Positions 1,324 through 15,081 of a DNA stretch of 15,340 nucleotides are shown here, piece after piece. Positions within the stretch are counted from its first letter, which is position 1. Every line of letters begins with the position of its first letter. This stretch comes from Candidatus Micrarchaeota archaeon (GTDB taxonomy: Archaea > Micrarchaeota > Micrarchaeia > Anstonellales > Bilamarchaeaceae): positions 1 through 15,340 of the forward strand of contig JBFMCO010000029.1 in NCBI GenBank assembly GCA_040754495.1, in the 5' to 3' direction. A program made the translations under genes and the position numbers. A model generated the notes under the pieces. That model saw only the letters and a list, made by a program, of their open reading frames with translations, made no database searches and was not told the DNA's origin.

Positions 1324-1695
1324 ATGGTAAGACAAAAGAACGGACCAAAAGACCTCGGTCCTTCCGAATCCAAGCCGCTGGTTTCAGTCTCAGCGACCTT
1401 GAAGCGGGCCGCGGATTTTGCTGCGGTTGTAGGTTTCAAGGGATTTCTCCTGGAATCAATGAAAAGCCTGGACCAGATGAGAATCGAGGATGGGCAGACT
1501 GTAAGAGTAAAATCGAAATTTGACGTCGAATATGAAATACTTTTTGAATTGGCGGGGAGGAAACTGACAATCGCCTGCGCCAATGACCTGCAAATCATTT
1601 ATCTGAAAGAAGGGGAAAAAGTCGAGGTGGCGCTCGATATGTTCGGTGTTTCGCGCGGTGAAATCGAATTCCGAGCAATTACCTCACCCAAGTAA
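1324..1695 (+). CDS. Hypothetical protein (about 123 aa)
   Basis: Long ORF. ATG 1324 preferred over TTG 1309; AT-rich TATA-like GTTAAATATAT upstream. Confidence 0.65.
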   Translation: MVRQKNGPKDLGPSESKPLVSVSATLKRAADFAAVVGFKGFLLESMKSLDQMRIEDGQTVRVKSKFDVEYEILFELAGRKLTIACANDLQIIYLKEGEKVEVALDMFGVSRGEIEFRAITSPK

Positions 1696-1699
1696 ACCG

Positions 1700-1715
1700 T
1701 TTTTCAGGGCAGTTT
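1700..1715 (+). repeat. 16-bp direct repeat, copy 2
   Basis: Identical to 1221-1236; begins 5 nt after the stop at 1695. Confidence 0.8.
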
Positions 1716-1841
1716 TGTTTGATGAAAAATCGCTTCGCGATTTTTGGGTAGTTTTGAGCGTGTAGGCTAGCCTGCCGATGGAAAATTCTGGAGGGTTTTT
1801 GTGGGGGAAGATGGAGAGAAAAGAGAAGAATTAAAAAAGCA

Positions 1842-2243
1842 ATGGAATATCTACCAATCATGCAGAAAGTAAAAACTAGAAGGCACCAATCAGCGTTCCA
1901 AAAAAATGAACTGGACGTTGTAGGAACACGGGGCAAATCCGTGCTTTCTGAAGCTGAAAGAAAGCGTCTGGATTTGATTCTTACGACGGGTTTAGAGGTT
2001 CTTATCCCTTCTCTCGCTAATGCTGTAGTTGCGACCCCGATTGTCTGCGAATATCACTTTAAGTTGGCCCCCGGTGTTTCTAAAAAAGAGCTCGGGGATT
2101 TCATTTCGAAAAAACTGAACGGATCTTCGCTTTGCAATGTAAAAACCAAAAGGGTATTTGGAGTACTGAAACAGGCTGAAAAAGAAGGGCTGGTGGCCGT
2201 GGAGTTGCGCCCTGGATTTCAAATCCCTTCGCCTGATATGTAA
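1842..2243 (+). CDS. Hypothetical protein (133 aa)
   Basis: Longest ORF in the interval with globular-looking composition. The start may be ATG 1860. Confidence 0.6.
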   Translation: MEYLPIMQKVKTRRHQSAFQKNELDVVGTRGKSVLSEAERKRLDLILTTGLEVLIPSLANAVVATPIVCEYHFKLAPGVSKKELGDFISKKLNGSSLCNVKTKRVFGVLKQAEKEGLVAVELRPGFQIPSPDM

Positions 2244-2501
2244 TATCCATACAGTATACCATTTCTAGTGTTTAATAACCATATCAGTAAACCTTCTTTC
2301 CATGCCCATGTGCATTTTTCGCCCCATGGTTCACCATAACAATATTGATTGGTAAAACCTGACCGCGCAATAGGGCTTACACGGGTTAAACTGGGCAAAA
2401 GAATGGAAAATGGGGATTTTGCTATTGTTTTGGAATACTGTGACGATGTTGAAATATTTTTGATTTACTTATATGATGTTATCCACAAGCTATTTTACAA
2501 T

Positions 2502-2987
2502 CTAATTTTTTGTTAAGTTTTCCTGCATAATTATCTTGCACTCTGTCAGTTTTACGGAAACGCAGTCCCTGTCCGAGTGCCCATCACAGACAACTTCGCC
2601 ATTGTAATATGTTGTGTGTGTCAAAAATCTAGAGCCATTTGAATAAGAATATGTAGCATAGCCTGATTTTTTATTATAGTTAGGATTACTGCTTTCTCTT
2701 TCGGTAAAAAGCCTGTATATCCAGATTTTGTTGTCTTTTGCTTCCTGAACCTTCTGGTCACTTACGAACATACCCGATGCATCTTGGAACCGACAATAAG
2801 ACAATTCGATATAACCTCTTTCATAGGAAAGTGATTTGTTTGCTACGTCGTCCGTCAAATGTGATTTGGCTCCGTTGTAACCGTCAAGAATATTCTGTGG
2901 GGCCCCCACGGTTGTGCATCCAATGGTTAAGAAAGCCAGAAAAATACAGGCGAAGCCTATCTTCGGGCACACCATGTAATCCCTCAT
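2502..2987 (-). CDS. Secreted lipoprotein-like hypothetical protein
   Basis: Signal-like KIGFACIFLAFLTIG followed by Cys (lipobox-like). Start is ATG 2987 or 2975; the 3050 start runs through the hairpin region. Confidence 0.7.
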   Translation of the reverse strand: MRDYMVCPKIGFACIFLAFLTIGCTTVGAPQNILDGYNGAKSHLTDDVANKSLSYERGYIELSYCRFQDASGMFVSDQKVQEAKDNKIWIYRLFTERESSNPNYNKKSGYATYSYSNGSRFLTHTTYYNGEVVCDGHSDRDCVSVKLTECKIIMQENLTKN

Positions 2988-3034
2988 ATCCTTTCGACTA
3001 CCTCTTTGATTATTTATCCCCTTCGCCCTCAACC

Positions 3035-3121
3035 ACTTAGCCGAAGGCAAGTTTTGTCAAGTCGGCCAACCCGCGGGGTTGGCAAACAGACTGTTTTGGG
3101 CCGCCTTTTCCTAAAAGGCGG
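3035..3121 (+). other. Hairpin cluster of junction D
   Basis: ACTTAGCC-GAA-GGCAAGT (3035-3052, one bulge), GCCAACCC-GCG-GGGTTGGC (3065-3083), CCGCCTTTT-CCT-AAAAGGCGG (3101-3121). Confidence 0.75.
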
Positions 3122-3146
3122 AATTCTCAATCTCTTTTATCTTTTC
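3122..3146. repeat. Junction repeat copy D (25 bp, AATTCTCAATCTCTTTTATCTTTTC)
   Basis: Exact 25-bp match to copies C and A; overlaps the last codons and stop of the Zn-ribbon ORF. Confidence 0.95.
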
Positions 3147-3306
3147 TGGAACTCTTTTTACCTTTCTTTTTTGGTGCTTTTTCCAGCTGGACAGGCAGCC
3201 CTTTATATCCGCATGAGCACTCTATCTGGCTAACCGGTCTTGAGCGGAATAAAGTCAGATGCTCTGCTGGATTAACTTCCTTCCTGCACTGCGGGCAAAT
3301 CTCCAT
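3127..3306 (-). CDS. Small Zn-ribbon protein (59 aa), absent from the ORF track
   Basis: Hand translation MEICPQCRKEVNPAEHLTLFRSRPVSQIECSCGYKGLPVQLEKAPKKKGKKSSRKDKRD; CxxC...CxCGYxG pattern and basic tail. Confidence 0.75.
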   Translation of the reverse strand: MEICPQCRKEVNPAEHLTLFRSRPVSQIECSCGYKGLPVQLEKAPKKKGKKSSRKDKRD

Positions 3307-3372
3307 GGTAATATTTCCCTCTGCCGGCTTTTATCTTTTTCTAAAGCAGGAAATCCCTGAGTTTGGGTCGCC

Positions 3373-3452
3373 CACGAGCCGGAGGCGAGTGCAACCGACC
3401 GTTTTGGGCCGTCTTTCGCGTCAGTGTGAGCCCGCAGGGCTCACCAACTGAC
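3373..3452 (+). other. Hairpin cluster of junction C
   Basis: CACGAGCC-GGA-GGCGAGTG (3373-3391) and GTCAGTGTGAGCCC-GCA-GGGCTCAC(CA)ACTGAC (3420-3452, 14-bp stem with a 2-nt bulge). Confidence 0.75.
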
Positions 3453-3479
3453 AATTCTCAATCTCTTTTATCTTTTCCA
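3443..3479. repeat. Junction repeat copy C (37 bp)
   Basis: ACCAACTGACAATTCTCAATCTCTTTTATCTTTTCCA, identical to 4916-4952. Confidence 0.95.
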
Positions 3480-3501
3480 AAAGAATTAAGGAATAGTAAC
3501 A

Positions 3502-3615
3502 CTAGCGATAGGCAAGCTCTTTCAGGACGGCTTTTTTGGCATTCATTATGTCCTTGACTACCTGTGAGTCTATGAAGACAGTCTCCTCTTTGCCTTTTTT
3601 GGTTTTTTTATCCAT
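3502..3615 (-). CDS. 37-aa peptide coupled to Doc, putative antitoxin (absent from the ORF track)
   Basis: MDKKTKKGKEETVFIDSQVVKDIMNAKKAVLKELAYR. Its start overlaps the Doc stop by 8 nt. The C-terminal LKELAxR helix resembles Doc-partner antitoxin tails. Confidence 0.65.
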   Translation of the reverse strand: MDKKTKKGKEETVFIDSQVVKDIMNAKKAVLKELAYR

Positions 3616-4090
3616 GTTTCCCACTTATCTCTTTTAGTAAAAACTCCTTTATAAGCCTTCGGAGTTCGTTTGGATCCTTGCCACCTTCCGCTAACCTCAC
3701 GATTTCCTCAGCTTCTTTGGGAGTAGAATCGAGTATAAACTCTTCCCTTGGCAAGAGGTTGATACTGAGCAAAAATAAAGCGCAAATATACGCTGTACTC
3801 TTGTTGCCTTCTGTAAACGGATGCTCGCATGCAATATAATAAAATGTCTCAGTAGCGACGTACAAAGCGTTCTCTCTTGGGTCAGTCTTATACTTATGCG
3901 GCCTATCTGTTAAGGTGTCGTATATATGCCGAATTACCCCCGGGTCCCGGATAGTGGTTGGATCATTTTTACCCATCGCTTTCCGGTCCTCGATGATTAT
4001 GTCGTGAATTAGGATTATTGCGCTTTCACTCAAAATAAGCGTACCGTTGGGAAGCCGCTTTATCTCCAAACGTCTTTCTTTATCTTCCAT
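3608..4090 (-). CDS. Fic/Doc family (death-on-curing-like) toxin
   Basis: Fic motif variant HPFTEGNKSTA, preceded by IRDPG and an A......I...HPF helix typical of Doc. Confidence 0.85.
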   Translation of the reverse strand: MEDKERRLEIKRLPNGTLILSESAIILIHDIIIEDRKAMGKNDPTTIRDPGVIRHIYDTLTDRPHKYKTDPRENALYVATETFYYIACEHPFTEGNKSTAYICALFLLSINLLPREEFILDSTPKEAEEIVRLAEGGKDPNELRRLIKEFLLKEISGKHG

Positions 4091-4095
4091 TTAAC

Positions 4096-4114
4096 CACGA
4101 GTCGCAGGCGAGTG
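4096..4114 (+). other. GNA-loop hairpin of junction B
   Basis: CACGAGTC-GCA-GGCGAGTG; 4095-4116 matches 3372-3393 at 20/22. Confidence 0.75.
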
Positions 4115-4128
4115 CATCTAACAAAAAA

Positions 4129-4152
4129 TCTCAATCTCTTTTATCTTTTCCA
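4129..4152. repeat. Junction repeat copy B (24 bp)
   Basis: TCTCAATCTCTTTTATCTTTTCCA, exact match to copies A and C. Confidence 0.95.
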
Positions 4153-4176
4153 TTAATCTCTTGGAAGTATCTTAAT

Positions 4177-4842
4177 CTATTGGTCAATCACGTCTGGAAT
4201 GGCTTTAATGAATTGCTCTATTACGGGTATAACTTTAGCTGGACCCCTTCCTTCCGTATGCTCAAAATATCCAGAGTCGTTCTTGCCGAATTCTTTTTCA
4301 ATCCCTACTTTCCAGTCTCCGTGTTTCTCGGTCAATTCTCTCAATAGTCTCTGCACCCTTCTCACTATAGGAATGTCATATCCCCTCTCTCCATTTTCAA
4401 AAACATATGTGCCGGTGCAGTAATTTATCCGTTTGCACAGATGTTCCGAACACCAGCCGGCCACTGTCTTTTTTGGAATCCCTTTTGCCAAAGCAAATTT
4501 TATAATCTCATTAATCGTCTTTTTTCCGCAATACTTAGTGTTATGAAGAAAGACTCTCCAGTTTCCATGTTCGTTATTCAGTTCTTCAATAAGCCTTTGC
4601 AAATCAATCAAAGTCGGACTCTCATTCCTTGATATTTTTCGTATTATATTCCTTGCCCTTCCGCTTAATTCGAACAGAGTGCCTTCCGTAGCTCTTTCCG
4701 CTTCCTTCCTTTTTGTTTCAAGATACACTTGAGAAGCCCGCCCTTCGCTGATTCCAAATCTCTTGGCGATAACTGAAAACTTAGTGGCTTCTTCCTCTCT
4801 TAATCTGAAGATTTTAAGATTACGCCGTCGGATGTCTTTCAT
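4177..4842 (-). CDS. Putative DNA-binding protein: sigma70 region 4-like HTH plus RNA polymerase alpha-CTD-like domain, with an internal repeat
   Basis: N-terminal FSVIAKRFGISEGRASQV (HTH). LFELSGRARNII...CGKKTINEI resembles the alpha-CTD/HhH pattern. aa 81-97 and 163-179 share 9/17 identities. Confidence 0.65.
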   Translation of the reverse strand: MKDIRRRNLKIFRLREEEATKFSVIAKRFGISEGRASQVYLETKRKEAERATEGTLFELSGRARNIIRKISRNESPTLIDLQRLIEELNNEHGNWRVFLHNTKYCGKKTINEIIKFALAKGIPKKTVAGWCSEHLCKRINYCTGTYVFENGERGYDIPIVRRVQRLLRELTEKHGDWKVGIEKEFGKNDSGYFEHTEGRGPAKVIPVIEQFIKAIPDVIDQ

Positions 4843-4915
4843 ATGTTCACTTTTATCCGTAATCTATAATTTAAATCAATCGTCTCAATCCTGATCGGGC
4901 TGGAAAACCGAGATT

Positions 4916-4952
4916 ACCAACTGACAATTCTCAATCTCTTTTATCTTTTCCA
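4916..4952. repeat. Junction repeat copy A (37 bp)
   Basis: Identical to 3443-3479; begins 13 nt after the RelE stop on the minus strand. Confidence 0.95.
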
Positions 4953-4965
4953 TCATTCTATTAGA

Positions 4966-5226
4966 TTATTGTTCTCTCAGCCATTTTTCATATTCCTTAT
5001 GATCTCCAACAAAATAAAACCGCCGGACCTTGCTATCTTCAAATGACTTGTAGCAGATCCGATACTGACCTACTTCCTCAACGAAGAAATCAACACCGAA
5101 ACGGAGATGGCGGCCAGGCAAACCCTTTTTTATCTGTTGGATCTTCTTCCAAATCCTTTTTTGGGTATCCGGACTGAGCTTCTCGAAATAGTAATCCCAT
5201 TTTGGATCATACTCCGCACTATACAT
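4966..5226 (-). CDS. RelE/ParE-family toxin
   Basis: 86 aa, basic. F.KL....QKRI.KKI..., GQYRICY and ...FVGDHKEYEKW are typical of archaeal RelE. Abuts the antitoxin stop (TAAATG). Confidence 0.85.
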   Translation of the reverse strand: MYSAEYDPKWDYYFEKLSPDTQKRIWKKIQQIKKGLPGRHLRFGVDFFVEEVGQYRICYKSFEDSKVRRFYFVGDHKEYEKWLREQ

Positions 5227-5502
5227 TTAGACATCTCTTAGATGCGGATATTTTTTCAAAACCTCCTCTTCACTAAGAACTTTTCTTTTTCCAGCAGCAA
5301 TCTCAGCATCTATTTTCTGCATCTTTTGAACCGCAAGTCTATCTAGTTCCTTCTCTTTGCTAAGGTGGTGCTCTCTGTAATCAAGCAAAGCAAGCCTGAT
5401 GGCCTCGGTCCGGCTTGCTGCCCTGCCGCTCCTGACTATCTCCTCGATAGTTTCGGCCACTACCCCGCTAAACTGTGCATGTATATTCATTGTACTTCCC
5501 AT
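5227..5502 (-). CDS. Ribbon-helix-helix (CopG/ParD-like) antitoxin
   Basis: MNIHAQFSG..AETIEEIVRSGRAASRTEAIRLAL is RHH-type; lies directly upstream of RelE. Confidence 0.8.
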   Translation of the reverse strand: MGSTMNIHAQFSGVVAETIEEIVRSGRAASRTEAIRLALLDYREHHLSKEKELDRLAVQKMQKIDAEIAAGKRKVLSEEEVLKKYPHLRDV

Positions 5503-5524
5503 GTATTATTATTGGTATATTAAC

Positions 5525-5531
5525 ATATAAA
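5525..5531 (-). promoter_or_regulatory. TATA box of the RHH-RelE operon
   Basis: TTTATAT about 23 nt upstream of ATG 5502, inside the imperfect palindrome TATATTAACATATA. Confidence 0.5.
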
Positions 5532-5753
5532 TAGCTTATCTTAAACCTGATTTGGGAAAAATTGTGGTGGCGTTGATCTTTCAACCTGAAAATTGTGGAA
5601 AACAATTACTGAACCTTCCCCAAAACCGCCTTGACATTAATATGGGGGGTACCCGCCTGTTTTCGTCCGCTCCTGAGCGAAGCGTGTGCAGTTAATCGCA
5701 GTTTTGCAAAAGTAGCTTATCATATTCCTTTGGGTTTACAAAAAAAAGAAAAT

Positions 5754-5948
5754 TTACTGCTGTTTTGCAAGCAGTTCATCCATTTGCTTCATCATCGCGG
5801 CCTTCTGCTCTTCAGACATGGAAGCCAGCTTGTCGGCGTGCGCCTGCTGGGCGTGCTCCATGGCTTTCCCCCTTACTTCCTCTGCAGTTGCACCCTCGGC
5901 CACAAAATGGCACTCGGGGCTGCCTAATTCCGCGCAACTAAGTTTCAT
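5754..5948 (-). CDS. DUF1059-family small metal-binding protein
   Basis: MKLSC.ELG..C.F...G.T.EEV......HA...H pattern; GGTGA RBS upstream of ATG 5948. Confidence 0.85.
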   Translation of the reverse strand: MKLSCAELGSPECHFVAEGATAEEVRGKAMEHAQQAHADKLASMSEEQKAAMMKQMDELLAKQQ

Positions 5949-6011
5949 TTTACTCACCGGGGTGAGAAAGAACCGAACGTTTAAATGCGTTGCCCACCGT
6001 TTAATGGAATT

Positions 6012-6090
6012 TCCGTCGATTGTGGAAAACGAGGGCTGATTATCCGTCGATTGTAGGAGTTAACTGTCGATTTTTTCGTCCATTGTGGAA
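6012..6090 (+). repeat. Three phased 16-bp imperfect direct repeats
   Basis: TCCGTCGATTGTGGAA (6012), TCCGTCGATTGTAGGA (6043), TTCGTCCATTGTGGAA (6075); spacing 31 and 32 bp. Confidence 0.65.
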
Positions 6091-6117
6091 TTGTTGCACG
6101 GTATTTTCTAAACAAGC

Positions 6118-6624
6118 TCACGGCGGTACCTTCCCCAACACCTTCTTCACGTCGATATGACAATACCCGCCCGGATTCTTCACCAGGTATTTTTGGTGAT
6201 ATTCTTCCGCACGCCAGAATTGCCCTGCCGGCTCTATCGACGTCGCAATAGGCTCGGAATACTTCTTCTGCTCGGACGCCTTCGACTCCTCTGCGAGCTT
6301 CTTCTGCTCGGCTGAATGGTAAAAAATAACGGGCCGGTACTGCGAACCGATGTCGTTCCCCTGCCCGTCCGCCTGCGTCGGGTGGTGCGCCATCCAGAAG
6401 ACCGAGAGGAGCTTCTCGTAGGTCGTCACGGAAGGATCATAGCTAATCTGCACGACTTCCACATGGCCGGTCGTGTCGTCGCAGACTTCTTCATAGGTCG
6501 GCTTCTCCTTGCTCCCGCCCATGTAGCCGACTGCGGTCTCCTTCACGCCTTTTATCTGCCTGAAAAGCTCCTCGGTGCCCCAGAAGCAGCCCCCTCCGAA
6601 AGTCGCGGTCTCCAGCCTCGCCAT
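6118..6624 (-). CDS. msrA: Peptide methionine sulfoxide reductase MsrA
   Basis: GGGCFWG active site, GYMGG, PTYEEVC, GHVEVV, QYRPVIF, AEEYHQKY and C-terminal YCH. Confidence 0.97.
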   Translation of the reverse strand: MARLETATFGGGCFWGTEELFRQIKGVKETAVGYMGGSKEKPTYEEVCDDTTGHVEVVQISYDPSVTTYEKLLSVFWMAHHPTQADGQGNDIGSQYRPVIFYHSAEQKKLAEESKASEQKKYSEPIATSIEPAGQFWRAEEYHQKYLVKNPGGYCHIDVKKVLGKVPP

Positions 6625-6632
6625 ACAAGCGC

Positions 6633-7034
6633 CTATTTCTTCTTCTCCGGCTCCCAGATGCCGAGGAGATTGCCTTCGCTGTCGTTAATGAAGGCTATCC
6701 GCCCGACTGTCGGGATGGTCAGCGTCTCGGCTATCTGCTTCCCCCCATTCTTCTTCACGAGGGCAAGGGTATTGTCGAGCGAATCCACCTGCACGTAGCT
6801 CGTTATGGGCTGGTTGGGGAACATCCGCTTCACCATCCCGCCCGAATTCAGCTGGCTCATCTCCGAATTCGGCCCTTTCTCGATTTTAGCCTCCCCGGTC
6901 ATGACCTGGTGGTACTCCATGTCCGAGCCGGGCATCTTCTCTTTAACGATTTCCCAGCCGAAGACCTTGGCGTAGAACTTCCTGGCCCTCTCCAAATCGT
7001 CCGCAGGTATCTCGAAATACGCTATGTTTCCCAT
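6633..7034 (-). CDS. VOC (glyoxalase/bleomycin resistance) family protein
   Basis: YFEIPADDLERARKFY..VFGW ... Y..V..LD..L..V...GG ...DSEGN..GIWE. Confidence 0.92.
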   Translation of the reverse strand: MGNIAYFEIPADDLERARKFYAKVFGWEIVKEKMPGSDMEYHQVMTGEAKIEKGPNSEMSQLNSGGMVKRMFPNQPITSYVQVDSLDNTLALVKKNGGKQIAETLTIPTVGRIAFINDSEGNLLGIWEPEKKK

Positions 7035-7044
7035 ACAAAACGCC

Positions 7045-7335
7045 TCATTTTCCCCTGGATGCCGAATTCACAACGTCATAAACCAATAACGACGCTTCAA
7101 CCCCGGCATACCTGAACATCAGGACTCCCTTGGGTATCCCCTTGCTCTTCATCGATGTATACGCATCTTTGCTCTCCCAAATGGTTATGATTCGGCATTT
7201 GTTCCCGTTCTTGATGAAGAACGTCTGGAGCATCCCCGGTTCAAGGGCCTTCGCCCCTTCTGCGAAATTAGCTTCGAGCCTGGCCGCCTTATCCGGCGGC
7301 AAATCCCCTTCCAAAATAGACATGACCATACCCAT
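7045..7335 (-). CDS. Antibiotic biosynthesis monooxygenase-like (dimeric alpha+beta barrel) protein
   Basis: RIITIWESKDAY motif and size fit. Start uncertain (7335, 7329 or 7323). Confidence 0.6.
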   Translation of the reverse strand: MGMVMSILEGDLPPDKAARLEANFAEGAKALEPGMLQTFFIKNGNKCRIITIWESKDAYTSMKSKGIPKGVLMFRYAGVEASLLVYDVVNSASRGK

Positions 7336-7378
7336 AGCTATCGCCATCCATCCGGGCACTCTCTATTGACCGTGGAAC

Positions 7379-7900
7379 TTATAATCCGTGGCTATAGCCA
7401 TACTGCAGCGCCTCTTCGACTTCGCCGTAGGAGCCTTTCCACGACGTCACAAAGGCGAATAGGACGCTCAGGTACTTCTTGTTCGGCTTGAAGGGCACCT
7501 TGACCTTCAGGCCCAGCCTCCGGATTATCTCGTTATCGGTCTTTCCCCCGGCTCTCATCTTCCGGGTCATCTGGACAATCCGGTTCTGGTCGTAGTCTGA
7601 CGCCTCATAAAGCTCCACGATTCCTTCAATCTGGCATCCTACACGGGTATTAAGGATGAGATTGCACATCGGGCAGACCGTCGTCAGGTTGGTTTTCTTG
7701 TTGTTGCTCGAGTCGCCGTCCAAAAACCATATCGTCTGCCATTTCTCTGCATGGAAATCGCAATAGGTGCATTTGTAATGGTCTCTTTCAAGCACATATG
7801 CCCGCAGCCCGTCCATTTCCAGCGCGGTCAATCTGCGGGTATTCTGGGTCAATCCACGGTAATTGGATGACTCTGCATAGGTCGGGGTGAGTTTTTTCAT
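7379..7900 (-). CDS. HNH-fold Zn-binding protein lacking the catalytic His (DotN/IcmJ-like)
   Basis: VLERDHYKCTYC...LDGDSSNN...NL..VCPMC; the usual HH before xDGD is WF here. Confidence 0.75.
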   Translation of the reverse strand: MKKLTPTYAESSNYRGLTQNTRRLTALEMDGLRAYVLERDHYKCTYCDFHAEKWQTIWFLDGDSSNNKKTNLTTVCPMCNLILNTRVGCQIEGIVELYEASDYDQNRIVQMTRKMRAGGKTDNEIIRRLGLKVKVPFKPNKKYLSVLFAFVTSWKGSYGEVEEALQYGYSHGL

Positions 7901-8028
7901 TGATATATTGTGACAGACCTTGTATATAGATGTGCATTTTTGGCAGATTGGAGAAAAATGCGGGTCCGTATGGCCTGGGAAAAGAAGATTTAGAAAAAAA
8001 GACGATTAACCCGAATCTCCGGCTAACC

Positions 8029-8172
8029 TTAGAACCTGGACTTCGGCTTGTAGCAGTTCCTGCAGTATACCGGCCTTCCTTCGGTTGGCTTGAAAGGAAC
8101 CTGGCACGGTTGCCCGCATTTCGCGCACGTTGCGTCAAACATTTCCCTGTCGCTGTTATCTCCGTATCCCAT
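8029..8172 (-). CDS. CxxC-x17-CxxC Zn-binding protein (47 aa), absent from the ORF track
   Basis: MGYGDNSDREMFDATCAKCGQPCQVPFKPTEGRPVYCRNCYKPKSRF, the classic REMF.A.C..CG....VPF.P...RPVYC..C signature. Confidence 0.9.
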   Translation of the reverse strand: MGYGDNSDREMFDATCAKCGQPCQVPFKPTEGRPVYCRNCYKPKSRF

Positions 8173-8324
8173 ATATACACCATTTTATGCTATTACACGA
8201 TTTTATTCTGTTGGGATATCTCCCCATCCTCTTAAATAGGGTGCTGAGGGAGGAAACCACCCCGCTGAAGAAAAAATCAGTCCGTAGGGTCACGCCGCCG
8301 ATGCCGTTCACGTCGCCAGGCTCG

Positions 8325-8840
8325 TTACCGGCGCCGCTCTCCGACCGGCTTACTGCTGTAAAACAGGGTTCCGGCGAAGAGCGGTATGACCATGAAGAAG
8401 AACCCGTCGCACCATCCTGGCGGGGGCGCCAGGTCGGATATGTCCGAGGGCGGGTCCTCCTTGCAGTTCTTGACCGCGATATCCACGCACCGGTCAGCTT
8501 TGTAAAAACAGTGGTCTATGGTTTCGAGTCCGCAGTCCAGCTTGTCGTTGCCGCTCGAATATATGGCCTTGCACGTTTCCAGCCTGTCCTTGCAGGCGTC
8601 CACCGCAGGGCAGTCGCCCATCTGGTACGAGATGCTCTCGAGGGGGTATGCGGCAAAAAGGCATGAAACGCCGCTGCCCTGGTATCCTTCATAGCATTTC
8701 TGGTCCATCTTGCCGCTGGAATCGAACGTGCATTTAGTGCACGAAGCGCCGTACGCCGATGATGCGCATGAGGCGGCAAAAGAAACGCCTGAGAGAACCA
8801 GAAGAAGGACCAGGAATCCGAAAACCTTGAGCAGGGCCAT
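8325..8840 (-). CDS. Cys-rich secreted protein with C-terminal membrane anchor
   Basis: N-terminal signal peptide, 13 Cys, Pro-rich linker, C-terminal hydrophobic segment and basic tail; TATA (8862-8869) 22 nt upstream. Confidence 0.8.
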   Translation of the reverse strand: MALLKVFGFLVLLLVLSGVSFAASCASSAYGASCTKCTFDSSGKMDQKCYEGYQGSGVSCLFAAYPLESISYQMGDCPAVDACKDRLETCKAIYSSGNDKLDCGLETIDHCFYKADRCVDIAVKNCKEDPPSDISDLAPPPGWCDGFFFMVIPLFAGTLFYSSKPVGERRR

Positions 8841-8870
8841 ACTCGGGATACATAAAAGGACTATATAAAT

Positions 8871-9308
8871 CTATCCGATGTCGAGATAAACTGCTTTTAG
8901 GTATTCGTTGCCCTCGAACCTCTTCTGCCCTCTCTTTACTGTCCCCTCTATTGTGATGACGAGCCTTTCCCCGTTCTTAGCAGGTATCCTTGCCGTTTCT
9001 GCTGCCTTGCACAGTATCCTGTCAAGAACCATCGAAGCCGGCCCAGGGATGTCGGCCGGAACCTGCCCGTCCAGGGTCAGGAACAGCCGGCGCCCGGAGT
9101 CGCCGTCTTTCAGGTAAACGCATGCCATGTCGCCGTCGGACGTGCCAACGTCCTCGTCGGCAGCAGTGAAAAGCAGGCCCCTCACCCTGAGCGTTTTTCC
9201 CAGGTAACGCCCCGGGTCATCAAGGATGGTCGAGGGCTTTTTCGCCCCCCTCCTTCCAGACGCCATCAGGGCAGCAACGGCAGCCCCAACGGCAGCTCCG
9301 GAACTCAT
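8871..9308 (-). CDS. Hypothetical membrane-anchored protein, possible OB-fold
   Basis: N-terminal hydrophobic stretch; ILDDPGRYLGKTLRVRG and TIEGTV are OB-fold-like. Start overlaps the upstream stop (TGATG). Confidence 0.65.
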   Translation of the reverse strand: MSSGAAVGAAVAALMASGRRGAKKPSTILDDPGRYLGKTLRVRGLLFTAADEDVGTSDGDMACVYLKDGDSGRRLFLTLDGQVPADIPGPASMVLDRILCKAAETARIPAKNGERLVITIEGTVKRGQKRFEGNEYLKAVYLDIG

Positions 9309-9466
9309 CAGTCCGCCTCGGCGAGCTTCTTCCGGAGCTGCTCGAGCTCGTCATGGACCGCCCTGTTTTTCTTCAGCGGGTCCATGCGGGCCTTCACCTC
9401 GAGCTCCTCAATTCTCGCCTTGATGTTGGCTTTCTTCCTTGACAGGTCCTTCTTGCTCATTCCCAT
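9308..9466 (-). CDS. Small basic coiled-coil protein (52 aa), absent from the ORF track
   Basis: MGMSKKDLSRKKANIKARIEELEVKARMDPLKKNRAVHDELEQLRKKLAEAD; fills the gap exactly and is coupled to the next gene. Confidence 0.8.
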   Translation of the reverse strand: MGMSKKDLSRKKANIKARIEELEVKARMDPLKKNRAVHDELEQLRKKLAEAD

Positions 9467-9476
9467 TGAAATCGCC

Positions 9477-10127
9477 TTATTCATGCGGCTTTACGACGAA
9501 CCACTTGCCGCCGACGCCCTCGCCCTTAACGTCGCCGGGCTCCGTGTCTGCGGCGTAGTAATAGAGCGGTACGCCGTTGTAGGTCACTTGCGTGGTGTTA
9601 TCCGTCCTGAGTATCGCCCCCATCTCGCCCGGAAGGCCGGAGGGGATTGCTATGGTGTCGGTGACGAGCAGCGGCGGCCAGTTGGCTGCGCATGTGCCGT
9701 AGCACGTGGACTTGTTCACGGAATCGGCCGTGAAGAGGTAAAGCGAATATCCCCGGTCATCGACGAGAATCTCGCCGAGGCTGGAATTGGCAGTCTTCAC
9801 GGTGTACGACACGACGCACGGCGTCTCGAACTCGCGGACGCACTTCTTGAGGATTTCGCACCAGGAATATCCTGCCGAGGGCTTGCACCCGTGCTCGTCC
9901 GTGTCGTTGCCGACAAGAGGCGGCGGAGTGACGTTGCTTTCATTGCCCTTCACCTCAGGGCACGGGGCGAACTCGCAGTTCTGGCCGGTCCGCCCCACTG
10001 CGGTCCCGTCCGGACAGATTTTCGCCTCCATCGTGCACGCTGTCGTGTTATCCGAAGGCGGCGCCTGCTGGGCGCAGCCTGCCAGGATTACAAGGATTAC
10101 CGCTAAAACCGTGAGAATCGCTTTCAC
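9477..10127 (-). CDS. Lipoprotein (216 aa) with COG4315-type (WPP) repeat domain and two small Cys modules
   Basis: GTG start with GGTGA (10132-10136) and TATA (10159-10165); lipobox LAGC; CTMEAKICPDG...CEFAPCP; GNDTDEHGC..SAGYSWC; G.SLY.F..D...STCYG.CA..WPP...QVTYNG.PLYYY..D. Confidence 0.88.
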   Translation of the reverse strand: MKAILTVLAVILVILAGCAQQAPPSDNTTACTMEAKICPDGTAVGRTGQNCEFAPCPEVKGNESNVTPPPLVGNDTDEHGCKPSAGYSWCEILKKCVREFETPCVVSYTVKTANSSLGEILVDDRGYSLYLFTADSVNKSTCYGTCAANWPPLLVTDTIAIPSGLPGEMGAILRTDNTTQVTYNGVPLYYYAADTEPGDVKGEGVGGKWFVVKPHE

Positions 10128-10168
10128 ATCATCACCATGCTGGAGCTCTCCGGCCAGGTTTATAAGAC

Positions 10169-10657
10169 TCACTTCCTGCTTGCAAAGTACGCCGCGAGGC
10201 CCCCGATGGCCGCAGGAATGGCGTTCTTTATCGTCCATAAGACGAAGATGAGGACCACCGCAAGCAGGTATAAAGACATCGGAATGTCGGCCTGCACTAC
10301 GGCCTCGTTGAGGACGAGCCGGGATACTGCGGTGTCGAAGAAAAGCTCGAAGATGGCTGAAGCCGCCGTAAGCAGGCTGAGCTGGACTATGAAATCTACG
10401 GCTTGAGGACGCTTTCCCCCGAAATAAAAGTATATGCCTATGAAATAGGCGACGGCGGGAAAGGCCATCAGCTGCAGGAGCAGGATGGCGATTGCGGAAA
10501 ACGAGGTGCTGCCGATGCACTTCATCCCGAACTCATCGGTGTCCCTGCCTTCCTCGTTGAAGCAGAGGCCCGCCCTTTCGGCAGCCATGAACATCGCGAA
10601 GCCTGCGAGCGTGATTAGAAGGACGGTGGCGGCAAATCTACCGTAGTCCTTAATCAT
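10169..10657 (-). CDS. Multi-pass membrane protein (162 aa)
   Basis: Several hydrophobic segments from MIKDYGRF. The upstream extension to 11017 overlaps another gene and is discarded. Confidence 0.7.
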   Translation of the reverse strand: MIKDYGRFAATVLLITLAGFAMFMAAERAGLCFNEEGRDTDEFGMKCIGSTSFSAIAILLLQLMAFPAVAYFIGIYFYFGGKRPQAVDFIVQLSLLTAASAIFELFFDTAVSRLVLNEAVVQADIPMSLYLLAVVLIFVLWTIKNAIPAAIGGLAAYFASRK

Positions 10658-11090
10658 CAGTCGTCCCCCCGATGTTCTTCCATTCCGGCTTCCATGCCGG
10701 CGCTTGTGGCCTGGCCCTGTTCCTGAGCCACAAGGCGATCTCCAGGAGTACGATTCCCACCAACAGGGCAACGGCGGCTGAATCCGTAAACCACAGGGCG
10801 ATCGCGCTGATAACCAGCGAAAGGCTGAAGGAGATGCTGATTCCGTAGGGCAGCCTCTCCCGCACGTCCTCCTCGGAAATCCTGAGAAGCGGCGGCAGCA
10901 TGATTCGTCCGGCAACGCAGAAAATGCACAGGGCCTCGAATCCCCATGCCATTGTGTAAAGCGCGAGGATTGCCATGTCCTGGAAGGTGCCGAGATTGAC
11001 AGGCAGGCCGAGGGCAAGGAAGTAGAAGACTGTCAAAAGGGAGCCGATTACGCCTATTATGAGGTATCTCCGGTCGCGTTCGCCAGCCAT
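10650..11090 (-). CDS. Multi-pass membrane protein (146 aa)
   Basis: About four hydrophobic segments; 8-nt overlap with the downstream gene. Confidence 0.7.
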   Translation of the reverse strand: MAGERDRRYLIIGVIGSLLTVFYFLALGLPVNLGTFQDMAILALYTMAWGFEALCIFCVAGRIMLPPLLRISEEDVRERLPYGISISFSLSLVISAIALWFTDSAAVALLVGIVLLEIALWLRNRARPQAPAWKPEWKNIGGTTDD

Positions 11091-11102
11091 CCGATCTGTC
11101 CT

Positions 11103-11327
11103 TTACTTCTTCCTGCGCGTCCTCTTCGCAGATTTGGACATCATCGGAGGCTTCGGAGCCGAAGGAGGAGAGTCGTCCTGCATTCTTGGTTCCATGCCGA
11201 ATCCTACGAGCATGAGGCCTATGAGGTAAGAAGCTATGGCCAGGGGCACTACGAAGTAGCTGCCGGTGATGACCATCCCCAAACCCAAAGCGACGCTGAG
11301 CACTCTCTGGTTTCTCTTTGATTCCAT
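11103..11327 (-). CDS. Small membrane protein with two TM segments and a basic tail
   Basis: ATG 11327 lies 22 nt after TTAATAAA; start could be 11348. Confidence 0.6.
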   Translation of the reverse strand: MESKRNQRVLSVALGLGMVITGSYFVVPLAIASYLIGLMLVGFGMEPRMQDDSPPSAPKPPMMSKSAKRTRRKK

Positions 11328-11425
11328 ACGTAGAAAATCAAGATTCATGTTTATTAATCTAATCCTTTGTGTTTTTATTGTGGTATTTAACATTTCTAAT
11401 ATTATCTTAGTATTTCAAAAATAGT

Positions 11426-11776
11426 TTAATCGAGATGGTGCCGCCCGCGGTGTGCATGGCCGAGCTTGTGCGAGCTGAAGATGTCTATGGCGTCCATGAA
11501 AAGGTGCGTCAGCTCCATATACTGGTTGTGCGACATCCCGAACCGGCCGTGCTTCAGATTCAGTTCCTCGTCGAAGATACGCGCCAGGTACCAAAGCTCC
11601 CGCGTTTCCATCTCGCTGAGCGGCCGGCGCTCATTCACCGCGTCCCTGAGCTTGGACTCCATCCACAAGACGACGTCGTCGGAAAAATCGCGCTTCCTCA
11701 TGTAGATGAGCACGCCCTCTATGTACGGGTCGTGCCTGTCCACCCTCCTTCCGGAAAGGAAGCCCAGTTTCACCAT
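11426..11776 (-). CDS. Hypothetical protein (116 aa)
   Basis: Helical composition with a His-rich C-terminus; divergent from the methyltransferase. Confidence 0.65.
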   Translation of the reverse strand: MVKLGFLSGRRVDRHDPYIEGVLIYMRKRDFSDDVVLWMESKLRDAVNERRPLSEMETRELWYLARIFDEELNLKHGRFGMSHNQYMELTHLFMDAIDIFSSHKLGHAHRGRHHLD

Positions 11777-11856
11777 TCCACCGACATGTATTATGCCGGA
11801 CGTCCTATTTATTGCTTTCAGTCAGCTAAAAAAACGTTCCCGTCCCATTCACGGGC

Positions 11857-12723
11857 ATGGAGGAAAAGGCCTTCCGCGACTGGCTGAGCAGCTACACTGA
11901 CCCGGAGGCCGCCCTGTCGGCGTTCGCCAGCCAGAAGACTTTTTTCCGCGTTAATACCCTGAAGCTCACGGTCGGGGAATTCGAGGGGAAATCTCGCCTG
12001 AGGCGCACCAAGACGCCCTACTACGATGCGGCTTTCGCCCTCGACGAGAACCTTCAGATAGGAAAAACATGGGAGTATTTCCTCGGACTCATCCATCCGC
12101 AGGCCATGCCCTCCATCCTCGTGTCCCTCGTCCTCGACCCGAAGCCGGGCGAGACGGTCCTGGATGTCGCCTCGGCCCCGGGCTCGAAGCTCTCCCACAT
12201 GGCCATGCTCATGGAGAACCGGGGAGTGCTCGTCGGGAACGACCTCAAGGGCGAGAAGGTCTCGGCATTATTTTCCACGATAAACCGGCTGAACGTCCTC
12301 AACTGCATCGTGACGACGCTGGACGGAAGCAGGCTTCCATGGAAGGAAAAATTCGACAAGGTCCTCCTGGACGCCCCCTGCACGGCCCTCGGGAGCGGCG
12401 CGGCCGCGTTTTCGCGCTGGGACGAGACGCACTCCGAGAGGATCGCCGAACTGCAAAAAAGGATGATTGCGAGCGCATACGATGCGCTGAGGCCGGGGGG
12501 TGCGATGGTGTATTCCACATGCACATACGCCCGGGAGGAGAACGAGGACGTCGTGGGGGCGCTTCTCGAATCGCGACAGGATTCGAGGCTCGAAGCAGTT
12601 GACCTGGCTTTTCCCAGGGAGCAGGGACTGGGCGAAGAGTTCAAAAGCTGCTGCAGGGTATATCCACAGCATCTCCAGAGCGAGGGATTCTTCATAGCGA
12701 GGATATCGAAGGTGGTCGGATGA
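11857..12723 (+). CDS. RsmB/NOP2 (NOL1/NOP2/Sun)-family RNA m5C methyltransferase, RsmF-like catalytic domain
   Basis: RVNTLK, DVASAPGSK (SAM binding), LLDAPC and YSTCT (both catalytic Cys), EENE.VV, EGFFIARI. Confidence 0.95.
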   Translation: MEEKAFRDWLSSYTDPEAALSAFASQKTFFRVNTLKLTVGEFEGKSRLRRTKTPYYDAAFALDENLQIGKTWEYFLGLIHPQAMPSILVSLVLDPKPGETVLDVASAPGSKLSHMAMLMENRGVLVGNDLKGEKVSALFSTINRLNVLNCIVTTLDGSRLPWKEKFDKVLLDAPCTALGSGAAAFSRWDETHSERIAELQKRMIASAYDALRPGGAMVYSTCTYAREENEDVVGALLESRQDSRLEAVDLAFPREQGLGEEFKSCCRVYPQHLQSEGFFIARISKVVG

Positions 12724-13259
12724 ATGTTAGCAAGGTTATCGCGGACAAGATAAGGAGGCCGGAGCACATGTTCTCGGTCTCGCTGAACGGTGACGACTAT
12801 TTCTACATACGCTCCGAGCCGTGCGCCATCTACTTCATTCCGGCGGCCGCCGCCCAGGAGCTACTGCGGAAAAGGAAGGGCGGGGCGCTTCCGGAATCCG
12901 CGGAGATGGTAGAATCGGCGAGCCTTTTCTTCGTGAAGGAGGGCGAGGAGCACATGCCGCCCAGATACAAGATGCTCGTCGGGCAAAGCCTCGTTTCGGT
13001 GAAGCTGGTCAAAGCCACAGACAAGCGCCTCTACGCCCCGCCCGGGAGCGAGGTGTTCGCATGGGAGGAGGATTTCGAGTTCATCTTCGAGATGGACGAG
13101 CCCTCGGACGTCCAGAGGTTCGGCGTCGTGGACCTGAAAAGGGGCCGCTCCTACATCTATGAATACCGGCGCGAAAAGCTTGAGGGGGAGCCCCCGCTCC
13201 GCTTCTTCAGGAATGACAAGGAGATAGAGATAAACGCCATCGAGTTCCACCTGGGATAA
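12720..13259 (+). CDS. Hypothetical protein (179 aa) in the methyltransferase operon
   Basis: ATGA overlap with the upstream gene and 1-nt gap to the downstream gene. No family recognised. Confidence 0.75.
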   Translation: MNVSKVIADKIRRPEHMFSVSLNGDDYFYIRSEPCAIYFIPAAAAQELLRKRKGGALPESAEMVESASLFFVKEGEEHMPPRYKMLVGQSLVSVKLVKATDKRLYAPPGSEVFAWEEDFEFIFEMDEPSDVQRFGVVDLKRGRSYIYEYRREKLEGEPPLRFFRNDKEIEINAIEFHLG

Positions 13260-13260
13260 A

Positions 13261-13692
13261 ATGTTCATAGCCAACAAGGAGAGGAATTTCCAGGCGTTCG
13301 CGAAGCGCCATTTCGGCATCTCCCTTCCGGCTGATGCGGTATTTTTCTATTCGGGCGGCGTCAGGGTGGGCGCTCCCGGCATCGTGAAAAGCCCCATCCG
13401 GGGCGAGAAGGGCTACGCGGCATGCGATGCCGGCTTCAACCCCACGAACGCCTTCGCGCAGAATTTCGGCCATCTTGCGACGAAGAACGTCGTGGACGTG
13501 GACGAGGCGAAAGCCAGGGAGTTCGCGGTCGGCCGGGGCCTCGGGGGCCTCGACCTTGGCGGGAAAAGCGGATTCGTCATCGTCAGGTTCCGGGGCTTCG
13601 CGGTGGGCCTCGGGCAGTACGACGCCGCGCAAAAAAAGGTGAGGAACCTCATCCCGGAGAAAAGAAGGAGGAAAATCGTCAACTCAGTCTGA
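13261..13692 (+). CDS. RsmF C-terminal PUA-like / NIP7-type RNA-binding protein
   Basis: PTNAFAQNFGHLATKNVVDVDEAKAREF..G..L, G.VIVRF.GFAVGLG and V.NLIP resemble the RsmF C-terminal domains. Confidence 0.75.
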   Translation: MFIANKERNFQAFAKRHFGISLPADAVFFYSGGVRVGAPGIVKSPIRGEKGYAACDAGFNPTNAFAQNFGHLATKNVVDVDEAKAREFAVGRGLGGLDLGGKSGFVIVRFRGFAVGLGQYDAAQKKVRNLIPEKRRRKIVNSV

Positions 13693-14025
13693 GACATCCA
13701 CGTTCAGGCTGCGCTCAAGGTAAATCAGGCTCGCCCGCTCGAAGGGCACGCCTTCGTCCGCGCTTATCCTGGCCAATGCCGCGAATTCGTCTTTTCCGAA
13801 ATGGAAGATGCGGACGTTCGCGGTGTTCTGCGCGTAATCCAGGAACCATTCCAGCGCCCTGCCCTTCTTCCGCTCAGACAGCCAGCGTGAAACCTCTGCA
13901 AGCACGAACGCGCTCAGCACGATTTTTTCCCGGTCGAATATCTTTATCCCAGCGCGCGCCTTCGCGTGCCTCGGGTGCGCGGGGTCGAAGAAAGCCTTCC
14001 AGAATTCCGCTGAAGTGGCTATCAT
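13684..14025 (-). CDS. Degenerate, truncated PIN-domain (VapC-like) protein
   Basis: FW.A.FD..HP.H.KA...KIVLSAFVLAEV is PIN-like, but the first Asp is absent and the C-terminal TFD.DF segment is missing. Confidence 0.65.
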   Translation of the reverse strand: MIATSAEFWKAFFDPAHPRHAKARAGIKIFDREKIVLSAFVLAEVSRWLSERKKGRALEWFLDYAQNTANVRIFHFGKDEFAALARISADEGVPFERASLIYLERSLNVDVSD

Positions 14026-14029
14026 CCTA

Positions 14030-14227
14030 TCACCAGGGCGGCAGGCAATTCATCGCCTCCTGCGTGGAGGAAAATTTCTTCCCGCTTTTGCGCTGCTGCT
14101 CGTAGCGCTCGAGCCCGAGCTCCACGAGCTGGTCGAGCGCCTCGGCTATCGTCAGGTTGTGCTCGTCCGCGAACCGGTTCAGCATCTCCTTCGTGCGCCT
14201 GCCGGCGTTCCGGATTGTATACATCAT
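14030..14227 (-). CDS. Ribbon-helix-helix (VapB-like) antitoxin
   Basis: MYTIRNA...TKE.L...A...NLTIAEAL is RHH-type; 4 nt upstream of the PIN gene. Confidence 0.7.
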   Translation of the reverse strand: MMYTIRNAGRRTKEMLNRFADEHNLTIAEALDQLVELGLERYEQQRKSGKKFSSTQEAMNCLPPW

Positions 14228-14242
14228 TTAGACCATTAATGC

Positions 14243-14259
14243 GTATTACATGTATTACA
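14243..14259. promoter_or_regulatory. Putative RHH operator: two GTATTACA direct repeats
   Basis: 14243-14250 and 14252-14259, between a TTTTTAAT TATA-like box and the antitoxin start. Confidence 0.5.
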
Positions 14260-14346
14260 ATTAAAAATACTGGCACAACGGCCCGAGGCGGCCCGGGCCG
14301 GCCCGCGCTTTCCCGCGCATCAGCCCCGAAGCCGCGCCTTAGCGCC

Positions 14347-15081
14347 TCATCGAAGATGCGAGACGAGCCAGCCCGCGCTCTCGCTTATCATCCTGGAAAA
14401 ATGCGCCTCGTCGCGGAAGAAATGGTCCGCACCGTCCACCACTACCAGCTTTTTCTCGCATCTGAGCGCATCCATGAGCGAATACGCCTGCGATATGGGA
14501 ACCGTGACGTCCCTGCTGCCGTGGACGACCAGCGTGGGCGCGTTGATTTTTGATGCTATCGATTTCATATCATAGCCGGACTCGTCTTCATAGACTTCGT
14601 AGCTCCAGCGCCTGCCGAAAGGAGAATAAAACCCCTCGCGCTTCCAGCGCGCGACGCCCTCAGGGCCGAGGCGCTCGTCGGAAAGGCGTTTTCCGTCAAA
14701 AACCGGGCACTTCAGTGCAAGGGCTGAAAAAGGCAGTTTCGCGGCGGAAATGAGCGACGGGCTGCCGCTGAAGCTGGAGCCGGCAAGGCCGATGCGCGCA
14801 TATCCCTCCTTTTCCGCAAAGCCGTATATCGCGAGGATATTGTCCACGACTTTTGTGACCGTCAGCCTCTCCACATCACCCTCGCTCTCCCCGTGGCCGT
14901 ACATGTCGAAGGCGAGCGTGGATATGCCTGCGGCGTTGAGCCTTGATGACAGCCCGGCATTCGTCCGGCTGGCCTTGTCCGAAAGATACCCGTGCGCGAG
15001 AATTGCCAGCGCGCCGCTTCCCCGCGCCTTGGCGTAGAGGCAGCACACCCTGCCGCTCAATGACTCAACGAAAACTTCCAT
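14347..15081 (-). CDS. Alpha/beta-fold hydrolase
   Basis: HG oxyanion motif, FDMYGHGESEG, nucleophile elbow GSSFSG, HGSRDVTVP (Asp), GADHFF (His). Confidence 0.93.
   Translation of the reverse strand: MEVFVESLSGRVCCLYAKARGSGALAILAHGYLSDKASRTNAGLSSRLNAAGISTLAFDMYGHGESEGDVERLTVTKVVDNILAIYGFAEKEGYARIGLAGSSFSGSPSLISAAKLPFSALALKCPVFDGKRLSDERLGPEGVARWKREGFYSPFGRRWSYEVYEDESGYDMKSIASKINAPTLVVHGSRDVTVPISQAYSLMDALRCEKKLVVVDGADHFFRDEAHFSRMISESAGWLVSHLR

Follow-up and report, generated by a model that had tools for sequence, protein, structure and literature searches.

Contig JBFMCO010000029.1 of a Candidatus Micrarchaeota archaeon is 15,340 nucleotides (nt) long and was analyzed over this whole length, hereafter the window; it is contig C29 of an assembly of 1.63 Mb that is 80% complete (GCA_040754495.1), and TBP genes in the assembly identify its source as archaeal. 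Along part of the window, small genes that all lie on the minus strand are separated by a repeated 22-mer, TCTCAATCTCTTTTATCTTTTC, whose minus-strand reading, GAAAAGATAAAAGAGATTGAGA, we refer to as R (Table 1). R is a real and previously undescribed junction element that is confined to a single island of accessory genes. Rfam gave no match to it at the gathering threshold and one weak, sub-threshold match with an E-value cut-off, and nothing bearing on R was found in the literature. Little is known of how DPANN archaea, with their small genomes, gain and regulate accessory genes, and the island represents one defined locus with gene-by-gene turnover in many species of a genus. In the following, genomes of this genus are given G numbers, that of the window being G000.

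A scan of the window yields four exact copies of the 22-mer, at 3125, 3456, 4129 and 4929 and all in one orientation. No further copy appears in the window when up to three mismatches are allowed, and none in 200 shuffles. The rest of the assembly contains no copy at all, even of a 12- to 15-nt core. Copy-to-copy spacing is 331, 673 and 800 nt, and copies C and A are identical over 37 nt (3443–3479 and 4916–4952). The four positions, their shared orientation, the spacings and the 37-nt identity had been recognized in an earlier sequence-only reading of the same DNA, and they hold. The same is true of the distances of 13, 24 and 22 nt that it gave between stop codons and repeat, provided that they are counted from a shared TG preceding the core; to the 22-mer itself, they are 15, 26 and 24 nt. 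As also stated there, the stop codon of the Zn-ribbon open reading frame (ORF) lies within the repeat, its TGA being inside the R core. The next ATG in the window follows R after 38–149 nt.

The gene assignments of the sequence-only reading stand in part: Fic/Doc is solid, the ribbon-helix-helix (RHH), RelE/HigB-like and sigma70_r4-like assignments are sub-threshold in Pfam, and neither the Zn-ribbon nor the lipoprotein matches a Pfam family. Adjacent small genes of known type II toxin–antitoxin (TA) families are present, represented by Fic/Doc in the window and by PIN, HicA and HicB in relatives, next to the sub-threshold RHH and RelE.

Table 1. Features of the window in the order in which the minus strand is read
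Feature	Position	Strand	Remarks
Left neighbors common to relatives	6118..7900	-	HNH-like f2, 7379-7900; ABM, 7045-7359; glyoxalase, 6633-7034; MsrA, 6118-6624
RHH-type antitoxin candidate	5227..5502	-	Weak Pfam RHH_1 match; own TATA box upstream
RelE/HigB-like toxin candidate	4966..5226	-	Weak Pfam match; homologs in L236, G010 and G064
R copy A	4929..4950	-	15 nt past RelE stop; has extended upstream part TCTAATAGAATGATG
Sigma4-like 221-aa protein	4177..4842	-	Weak sigma70 region-4-like helix-turn-helix; own TATA box TTTAAATTATA at -33..-23
R copy B	4129..4150	-	26 nt past sigma4-like stop; 38 nt ahead of Fic/Doc ATG
Junction B hairpin block	4095..4115	-	GCACTCGCC..CTCGTGG; within the 36-nt stretch missing from the G022 R-ATG junction ahead of Fic
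Fic/Doc toxin	3608..4090	-	Pfam 4e-9; module with downstream peptide kept in G022, G024 and G010
40-aa ORF	3502..3624	-	Overlaps Doc stop; C-terminus KKAVLKELA and flank past the stop conserved in G022
R copy C	3456..3477	-	24 nt past stop of 40-aa peptide ORF; 37-nt identity to copy A
Junction C	3367..3442	-	Hairpin, CCCAAAAC block, hairpin; same architecture as D with different arms; tRNA-intron-like
59-aa Zn-ribbon protein	3127..3306	-	Ortholog of the 54-aa gene following the HNH-like gene in G014 and G031; no Pfam match
R copy D	3125..3146	-	Codes final residues and TGA of the Zn-ribbon gene, likewise in the G013, G014 and G031 orthologs
Junction D leader	3010..3122	-	Palindrome CCGCCTTTTAGGAAAAGGCGG, CCCAAAAC and second hairpin; tRNA-intron-associated repeat copy, kept at matching G022 junction
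161-aa putative lipoprotein	2502..2987	-	Final gene ahead of conserved right flank; no family match
Right boundary element	2240..2470	.	Non-coding; in 23/40 genus genomes; five GTAAACC/GTGAACC/GGTTTAC boxes around conserved core

One hypervariable island across the genus

Copies of R are not scattered behind housekeeping genes. Exact matches to its 15-nt core in 40 genomes of the genus all fall within one syntenic island, with the exception of a single match (G023:C10:1559) whose context lies outside the comparison; two R matches on viral contigs are both attributable to chance. The island is limited by the HNH-like f2, ABM and glyoxalase genes on one side and by a conserved non-coding right flank (window 2240–2470) on the other. 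The interval between these limits spans 0.7 kb (G007), 1.65 kb (G004), 4.1 kb (G000) or 5.8 kb (G033), and four metagenome contigs and one complete chromosome provide further versions of it.

The gene pool of the island comprises VapBC, AbrB-PIN, HicAB, RHH-RelE, Fic with its peptide, TspO, MsrA, SdpI, a pyrimidine-dimer glycosylase, DUF1801 and Zn-ribbons, and the order of these small genes varies by species. Likewise, Fic with its peptide, f42, TspO, VapBC, AbrB-PIN and RHH-RelE change their neighbors from species to species, often with R on both sides. The Fic-peptide module, for instance, is found in four contexts in four genomes; G022 shares the arrangement R-Fic-R with G000 and the arrangement R-f42-R with G033. 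Module order is not fixed across relatives, and the array is one of co-oriented, mostly single-gene modules whose content differs among them. Neither of the two observations that the sequence-only reading had named as refuting its cassette view, scattered copies and a fixed module order, was therefore made.

As it is short, repeated and intergenic, and adjoins hairpins of a dispersed family (see below), the 22-mer might be regarded as a decayed mobile repeat resembling a miniature inverted-repeat transposable element (MITE) or a repetitive extragenic palindrome (REP), the alternative named in the sequence-only reading. The genome-wide counts speak decisively against it: R is not a dispersed repeat, because all four copies of its own genome lie in the array, and the 40 relatives hold none beyond the same locus, the one G023 match apart. 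Moreover, R has no terminal inverted repeats, and its orientation and its register to start codons are fixed. We therefore consider such an origin barely conceivable for the 22-mer. The junction hairpins, by contrast, are dispersed repeats.

Position of R relative to start codons

With one mismatch allowed in a 13-nt core, we count 31 copies of R in 18 loci, 27 of them outside the window. An ATG follows R after 2–3 nt in 13 of these 27 (binomial tail 1.4e-9), and for 10 of the 13 the ORF that begins there runs to 45 codons or more in the available sequence. The genes directly behind R, which include TspO, Fic, f43, a metallo-β-lactamase (MBL)-like gene and membrane proteins, are unrelated. On its other side, R mostly lies 0–31 nt past the preceding stop, so that the spacer is essentially filled. 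Similarity between copies stops sharply 0–3 nt past R and fades to a variable extent, over 0–43 nt, upstream.

In archaeal promoters of leaderless mRNAs, the TATA box is centered about 27 nt ahead of the start, and the start codon forms the 5' end of the transcript. A genome-wide profile of long ORFs with a well-defined ATG shows A at positions −34 to −32, T at −30 to −27 and again A at −26 to −23, which is the pattern expected for such promoters with their B recognition element (BRE) and TATA box. At the R-ATG junctions, an A/T-rich octamer, ATATTTAG, ATTATTAG or AATAATAG, is found directly 5' of the 22-mer, at −32 to −24 from the ATG. Its distance to the ATG equals that of the genome-wide BRE/TATA signal and that of the TATA box of f2, whose promoter (CTATATAC, at −31 to −24) is nearly invariant between species. 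In relatives, the octamers are thus placed as in a leaderless promoter, while the boxes as such are atypical. Furthermore, copy 1 of G033 sits in a divergent spacer, and the downstream gene must therefore start its transcription there. Judging by this placement, R must at least supply an expression signal for the genes that it abuts.

We tentatively favor the view that R is an island-specific gene-start element, copies of which also mark, and probably mediate, the exchange of modules. The 22-mer would be the invariant core of an element of about 40 nt that is private to one accessory-gene island and usually has the layout upstream stop, 0–30 nt, A/T-rich TATA-like octamer, 22-mer, 2–3 nt and next ATG. 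This portable element would serve as a compact promoter, or as a promoter core or operator, for leaderless mRNAs, and an island-specific factor probably binds the spacer between TATA box and start, which would keep its 22 nt invariant. If R also mediates exchange, the island would constitute a cassette system unrelated to integrons.

Several points weigh against this view. Window copies C and D have perfect 22-mers but are preceded by octamers that make poor TATA boxes, and neither window copies A–D nor R1 and R2 of G062 have an abutting ATG. Archaeal promoters do not usually have an invariant 22-nt spacer between TATA box and start, and no cognate factor has come to light. The purine-rich 3' end of R occupies the usual position of a Shine-Dalgarno (SD) sequence, where a role at the RNA level and a promoter role cannot be separated. 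That TA modules have R duplicated around them is more readily explained by insertion through R than by a pure promoter. Lastly, R is dispensable, given that the close relatives G021 and G034 have no intact copies.

The purine-rich end raises the further possibility that R acts in RNA. The island genes would then be read as long polycistronic transcripts, in which the 22-mer would be an intercistronic signal for translation initiation or processing, possibly together with hairpins of the bulge-helix-bulge (BHB) type. This would be in keeping with the tiny spacers and the co-oriented genes, with the SD-like GGTG and GAGG that precede other island genes where the 3' end of R sits, and with the tRNA-intron-like elements that repeatedly follow R at close range. 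However, GAGA would match the usual archaeal anti-SD poorly, the assembly lacks the 16S rRNA 3' end with which R might pair, the genome yielded no complementary RNA, and the copy in the divergent spacer needs a promoter of its own. Taken together, this makes an action in RNA improbable.

Movement of modules

In 7 of the 10 TA modules checked, R is located no more than 49 nt downstream, even where no R lies ahead. These seven are RHH-RelE and Fic-peptide of the window, VapBC and HicAB of G004, and the AbrB-PIN modules of G062, G016 and G036; in the remaining three (L232, G007 and the second AbrB-PIN of G062), R is farther away or its distance unmeasured. The copy past Fic in G022 is degenerate. 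In G062, TA modules with their own promoters have R on both sides.

R occurs in the three subtypes I (GAAAAGATA), II (GAAAATCC) and III (GAAATACY). Exact type I is common to G000, G004 and G007, although the latter two share only 71% Cdc6 identity with G000, whereas the closer relatives G062 (Cdc6 84%) and G022 (82%) carry types II/III, with both in G062. As far as this one marker tells, the subtypes appear to be out of step with host relatedness. The island also has a G+C content of 0.37–0.48 (about 42%), compared with 0.595 for the genome; along the window, G+C drops from 0.52–0.62 (6000–15000) to 0.37–0.48 (1500–5500). Because the subtypes ignore host relatedness and the G+C content of the island differs from that of the genome, the modules seem to move. 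The cassette proteins have diverged as much as the neighboring core genes and hence do not point to recent transfer. For AbrB-PIN with a type III motif, we considered a recent horizontal transfer and rejected it, as nucleotide identity is only 68–71%.

With R as a gene-start element, such movement would have a simple basis. Recombination between copies is possible because all module boundaries share one sequence, and, be it through short homology, in a Campbell-type manner or by an unlinked enzyme, it would insert, delete and swap modules, with R being carried along from species to species.

Tests for a recombination site

The sequence-only reading had proposed a site-specific cassette-capture system with a new site. 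In its present form, this explanation makes the 22-mer a dedicated recombination core, at which circular one-module cassettes are captured by a recombinase encoded elsewhere, while the site also supplies the expression signal of the next cassette. Much of what is described above agrees with it: the location in one island with shuffled, co-oriented and TA-rich modules; modules that R flanks on both sides in more than one genome; R close behind the toxin stop, even without a preceding R; a sharp 3' edge of similarity, as at an integron crossover; subtypes incongruent with their hosts and a patchy distribution; and a G+C content foreign to the genome. Moreover, each of the six motif-bearing genomes searched for them has tyrosine recombinases of about 410 aa in trans.

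The expected machinery is, however, not linked to R. That the window holds no recombinase, as first read from the sequence, is borne out by a Pfam search of its proteins, and none is encoded in the 26 other loci examined either, the Phage_integrase profile giving no match in any of these. In the complete chromosome G064, about 256 kb separate R from the closest tyrosine recombinase; in G033, the distance exceeds 130 kb. None of the six tyrosine recombinases of G000 is on the contig of the window, and two of them lie beside tRNA genes; the G000 assembly contains neither a serine recombinase nor a Y1 HUH gene. The HNH-like f2 gene was considered as a cis-acting nuclease and discarded, since it is unlinked in G033, G007, G004 and G016.

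The site itself gives a similar picture. R shows no dyad symmetry, its longest inverted arms being 4 nt and outside the core, and attC-type pairs of the form RYYYAAC...GTTRRRY (57–141 bp) are absent from both strands of the whole window, where 0.5 would be expected from shuffling of 2400–5700. Nor does R match any of the 32 predicted tRNAs of the genome significantly, which led us to reject it as a tRNA fragment or att remnant; it thus has neither the inverted arms nor the tRNA origin of an att or dif site. The analogy with G/TT crossover at integron sites, too, breaks down. GTT does follow the core after 6–7 nt at three of the four window junctions, two of which share one same 13-nt flank, but it is not conserved in the 27 copies of other genomes, where ATG at +2/+3 recurs instead.

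Finally, breakpoints on the 5' side of R are irregular. At positions 6640–6680 of locus L232 (oriented), a stretch of about 40 nt with homology to the terminal part (3') of VapC (PIN) stands ahead of an R copy that lies behind an unrelated, MBL-like gene, and this remnant is the scar of an earlier rearrangement. At 5740–5905 of the same locus, a 56-aa RHH-like orphan gene follows VapC. With irregular breakpoints, no linked enzyme, neither dyad symmetry nor attC cores, and cassette proteins as diverged as their core neighbors, a dedicated cassette-capture site has no direct support, and we hold it to be unlikely, if worth keeping in mind. Slightly more doubtful still is a cassette platform that works without an integrase or with one in trans and uses a 22-nt non-palindromic site as both recombination point and portable promoter or leader. 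If true, it would be a functional analog of integrons with a different site and enzyme, by which TA and stress genes move between species.

The irregular 5' breakpoints are easier to reconcile with a purely regulatory R, that is, with a promoter or operator of a small stress and TA regulon in the island. Shuffling would then result from unrelated rearrangements, and the orphan copies of the window would be promoters of displaced genes. ATG adjacency, the TATA-like position and the stress-related genes of the island (MsrA, TspO, glyoxalase, ABM and pyrimidine-dimer glycosylase) are consistent with this. Yet it leaves unexplained why R is duplicated around TA modules with promoters of their own, why subtypes and hosts do not match, and why perfect copies in the window lack an adjacent gene start; it is, in our judgment, distinctly unlikely. 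If R were only a promoter or operator, it would still represent a compact, transplantable archaeal expression signal, along with a small regulon and its putative factor.

Hairpins at the junctions

The hairpins that accompany R in the window were not taken into account in the sequence-only reading; they are copies of a tRNA-intron-associated repeat. A palindrome, CCGCCTTTTnnnAAAAGGCGG, followed by CCCAAAAC has at least 15 copies in the genome, nearly all inside intron-bearing tRNA genes as predicted by ARAGORN, and junctions C and D agree with the complete layout of these introns, namely hairpin, CCCAAAAC, central hairpin, GTTTTGGG and hairpin. The family is found on contigs C14, C22, C24, C26, C46, C56, C58, C59 and C66 of G000, among others, in the introns of many tRNA genes. 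Repeats of this type are also present at sites other than tRNA genes, three of the array junctions among them.

Comparison with relatives allows these elements to be followed at individual junctions. Ahead of Fic, G022 reads R-AA-ATG, whereas G000 has an additional 36 nt that bear a hairpin. The leader past copy D is conserved in G022, though the genes behind it are not homologous; the lipoprotein had been considered as a homolog of the gene behind the G022 leader, which the comparison does not support. In G033, one more R copy is followed by such a hairpin element. In total, tRNA-intron-like elements lie within about 30 nt past R five times in three genomes, at 0–13 nt in four cases. The junction hairpins thus form a second, independent repeat family, with at least five insertions directly behind R in three genomes. 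This repeat may be a mobile intron-type element; its copies outside tRNA genes and beside R may be mobile, or they may be processed in mRNA leaders.

The hairpins also bear on the role that the sequence-only reading had assigned to R as the 3' end of modules. This description fits the window, where R lies past the last stops, but not the relatives, where it abuts the ATG of the next gene. If R is a gene-start element, as we favor, modules with their own promoters (the sigma4-like, Zn-ribbon and lipoprotein genes, all of which have TATA boxes at the canonical distance) and hairpin insertions would have parted it from the next ATG in the window, and it would look like a 3' junction repeat there because of this separation.

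Comparison with known systems

Integron cassette arrays and clusters of attC sites lacking integron-integrases (CALINs) have been reported in Archaea (PMC9668308; Sci Adv 2022), with Micrarchaeota unmentioned in the main text. The island resembles them in its co-oriented, mostly one-gene and TA-rich modules, in the repeat close behind the upstream gene and in its variable content at a fixed place; a linked integrase is often missing from those arrays as well. On the other hand, no IntI is found beside the array, which is not sufficient on its own to exclude an integron, since IntI is also absent from CALINs. Moreover, R is 22–40 nt long, non-palindromic and conserved in sequence, as opposed to an imperfect palindrome of 57–141 bp that is conserved in structure. 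It has no R''/R' cores, and it abuts the next start codon, for which it seems to supply the expression signal. Since two of the defining features were tested and found to be absent, R does not belong to the integron family. That it works in an integron-like manner with an unlinked enzyme is a minor possibility.

In the chromosomal superintegron of Vibrio, the near-identical VCR repeats are attC sites of about 120 bp, which IntIA recombines as folded single strands. The likeness lies in the near-identical junction repeats within one genome, the chromosomal location of the array and the TA cassettes that may stabilize it; unlike in Vibrio, no fold, integrase or attI was found here. Tandem arrays at one att or dif site, as formed by integrative mobile elements exploiting Xer (IMEX) and tRNA-targeting integrative elements, have short direct repeats flanking successive inserts, and direct repeats of one short sequence surround the inserts of the island as well. 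R differs from these in having no dyad symmetry, tRNA likeness or neighboring integrase, and the inserts are 0.3–0.8 kb long and devoid of mobility genes.

With archaeal BRE/TATA promoters of leaderless mRNAs, R shares an A/T-rich box about 24–32 nt ahead of the ATG, R itself being the spacer between box and start. Ordinary archaeal promoters, however, are not restricted to a single locus and have no invariant 22-nt spacer common to unrelated genes and to species at 71% Cdc6 identity. As regards the hairpins, transposed BHB tRNA introns are known from Thermoproteales. There, as here, one repeat family occupies the introns of many tRNA genes, but the copies described here are also located outside tRNA genes, directly past R.

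Other genes and features of the island

The sigma4-like protein has no homolog at E≤1e-3 among 5.8 billion clustered proteins and, in G031, resembles a 409-aa protein only weakly (29%); by these comparisons, it is a true orphan. An exact-protein look-up with the sigma4-like and Fic proteins gave no second contig. We also considered a small peptide (MEKIKEIEN...) coded by R itself, which was rejected, as start codon and frame differ among the copies.

The f2 product comprises 173 aa with a CxxC...CxxC pattern, and its closest copies within the genus share 71–80% identity with it. Matches are found in 19 of the 40 genomes, with 46–65% identity for more distant copies or paralogs. Its weak domain matches are of the HNH type (IcmJ/DotN, the HNH region of IscB, ZorE), the usual catalytic His position seemingly being replaced.

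At the opposite end of the island, the right boundary element is single-copy and consists of two GTAAACC boxes, a conserved core of about 95 nt, GTGAACC and two inverted GGTTTAC boxes. It was considered as a structured RNA and as an oriC; the former was rejected for its lack of covarying pairs, the latter because Cdc6 is about 930 kb distant in G064.

In the low-GC species G013, G014, G031 and G002 (loci L093, L089, L096 and L098), a unit of about 19 nt, TCTAAAAGA-N7-GAA, is repeated two to four times in tandem directly ahead of start codons. The 22-mer resembles one such unit, and in these species R and the 54-aa Zn-ribbon gene overlap at the 3' end of the latter. Finally, a stretch of about 600 nt without a clear gene extends from MsrA to the RHH-RelE pair of the window, and within it, at 6010–6090 on the plus strand, lie three 18-nt direct repeats (TTTCCGTCGATTGTGGAA-like) that are 31–32 nt apart.

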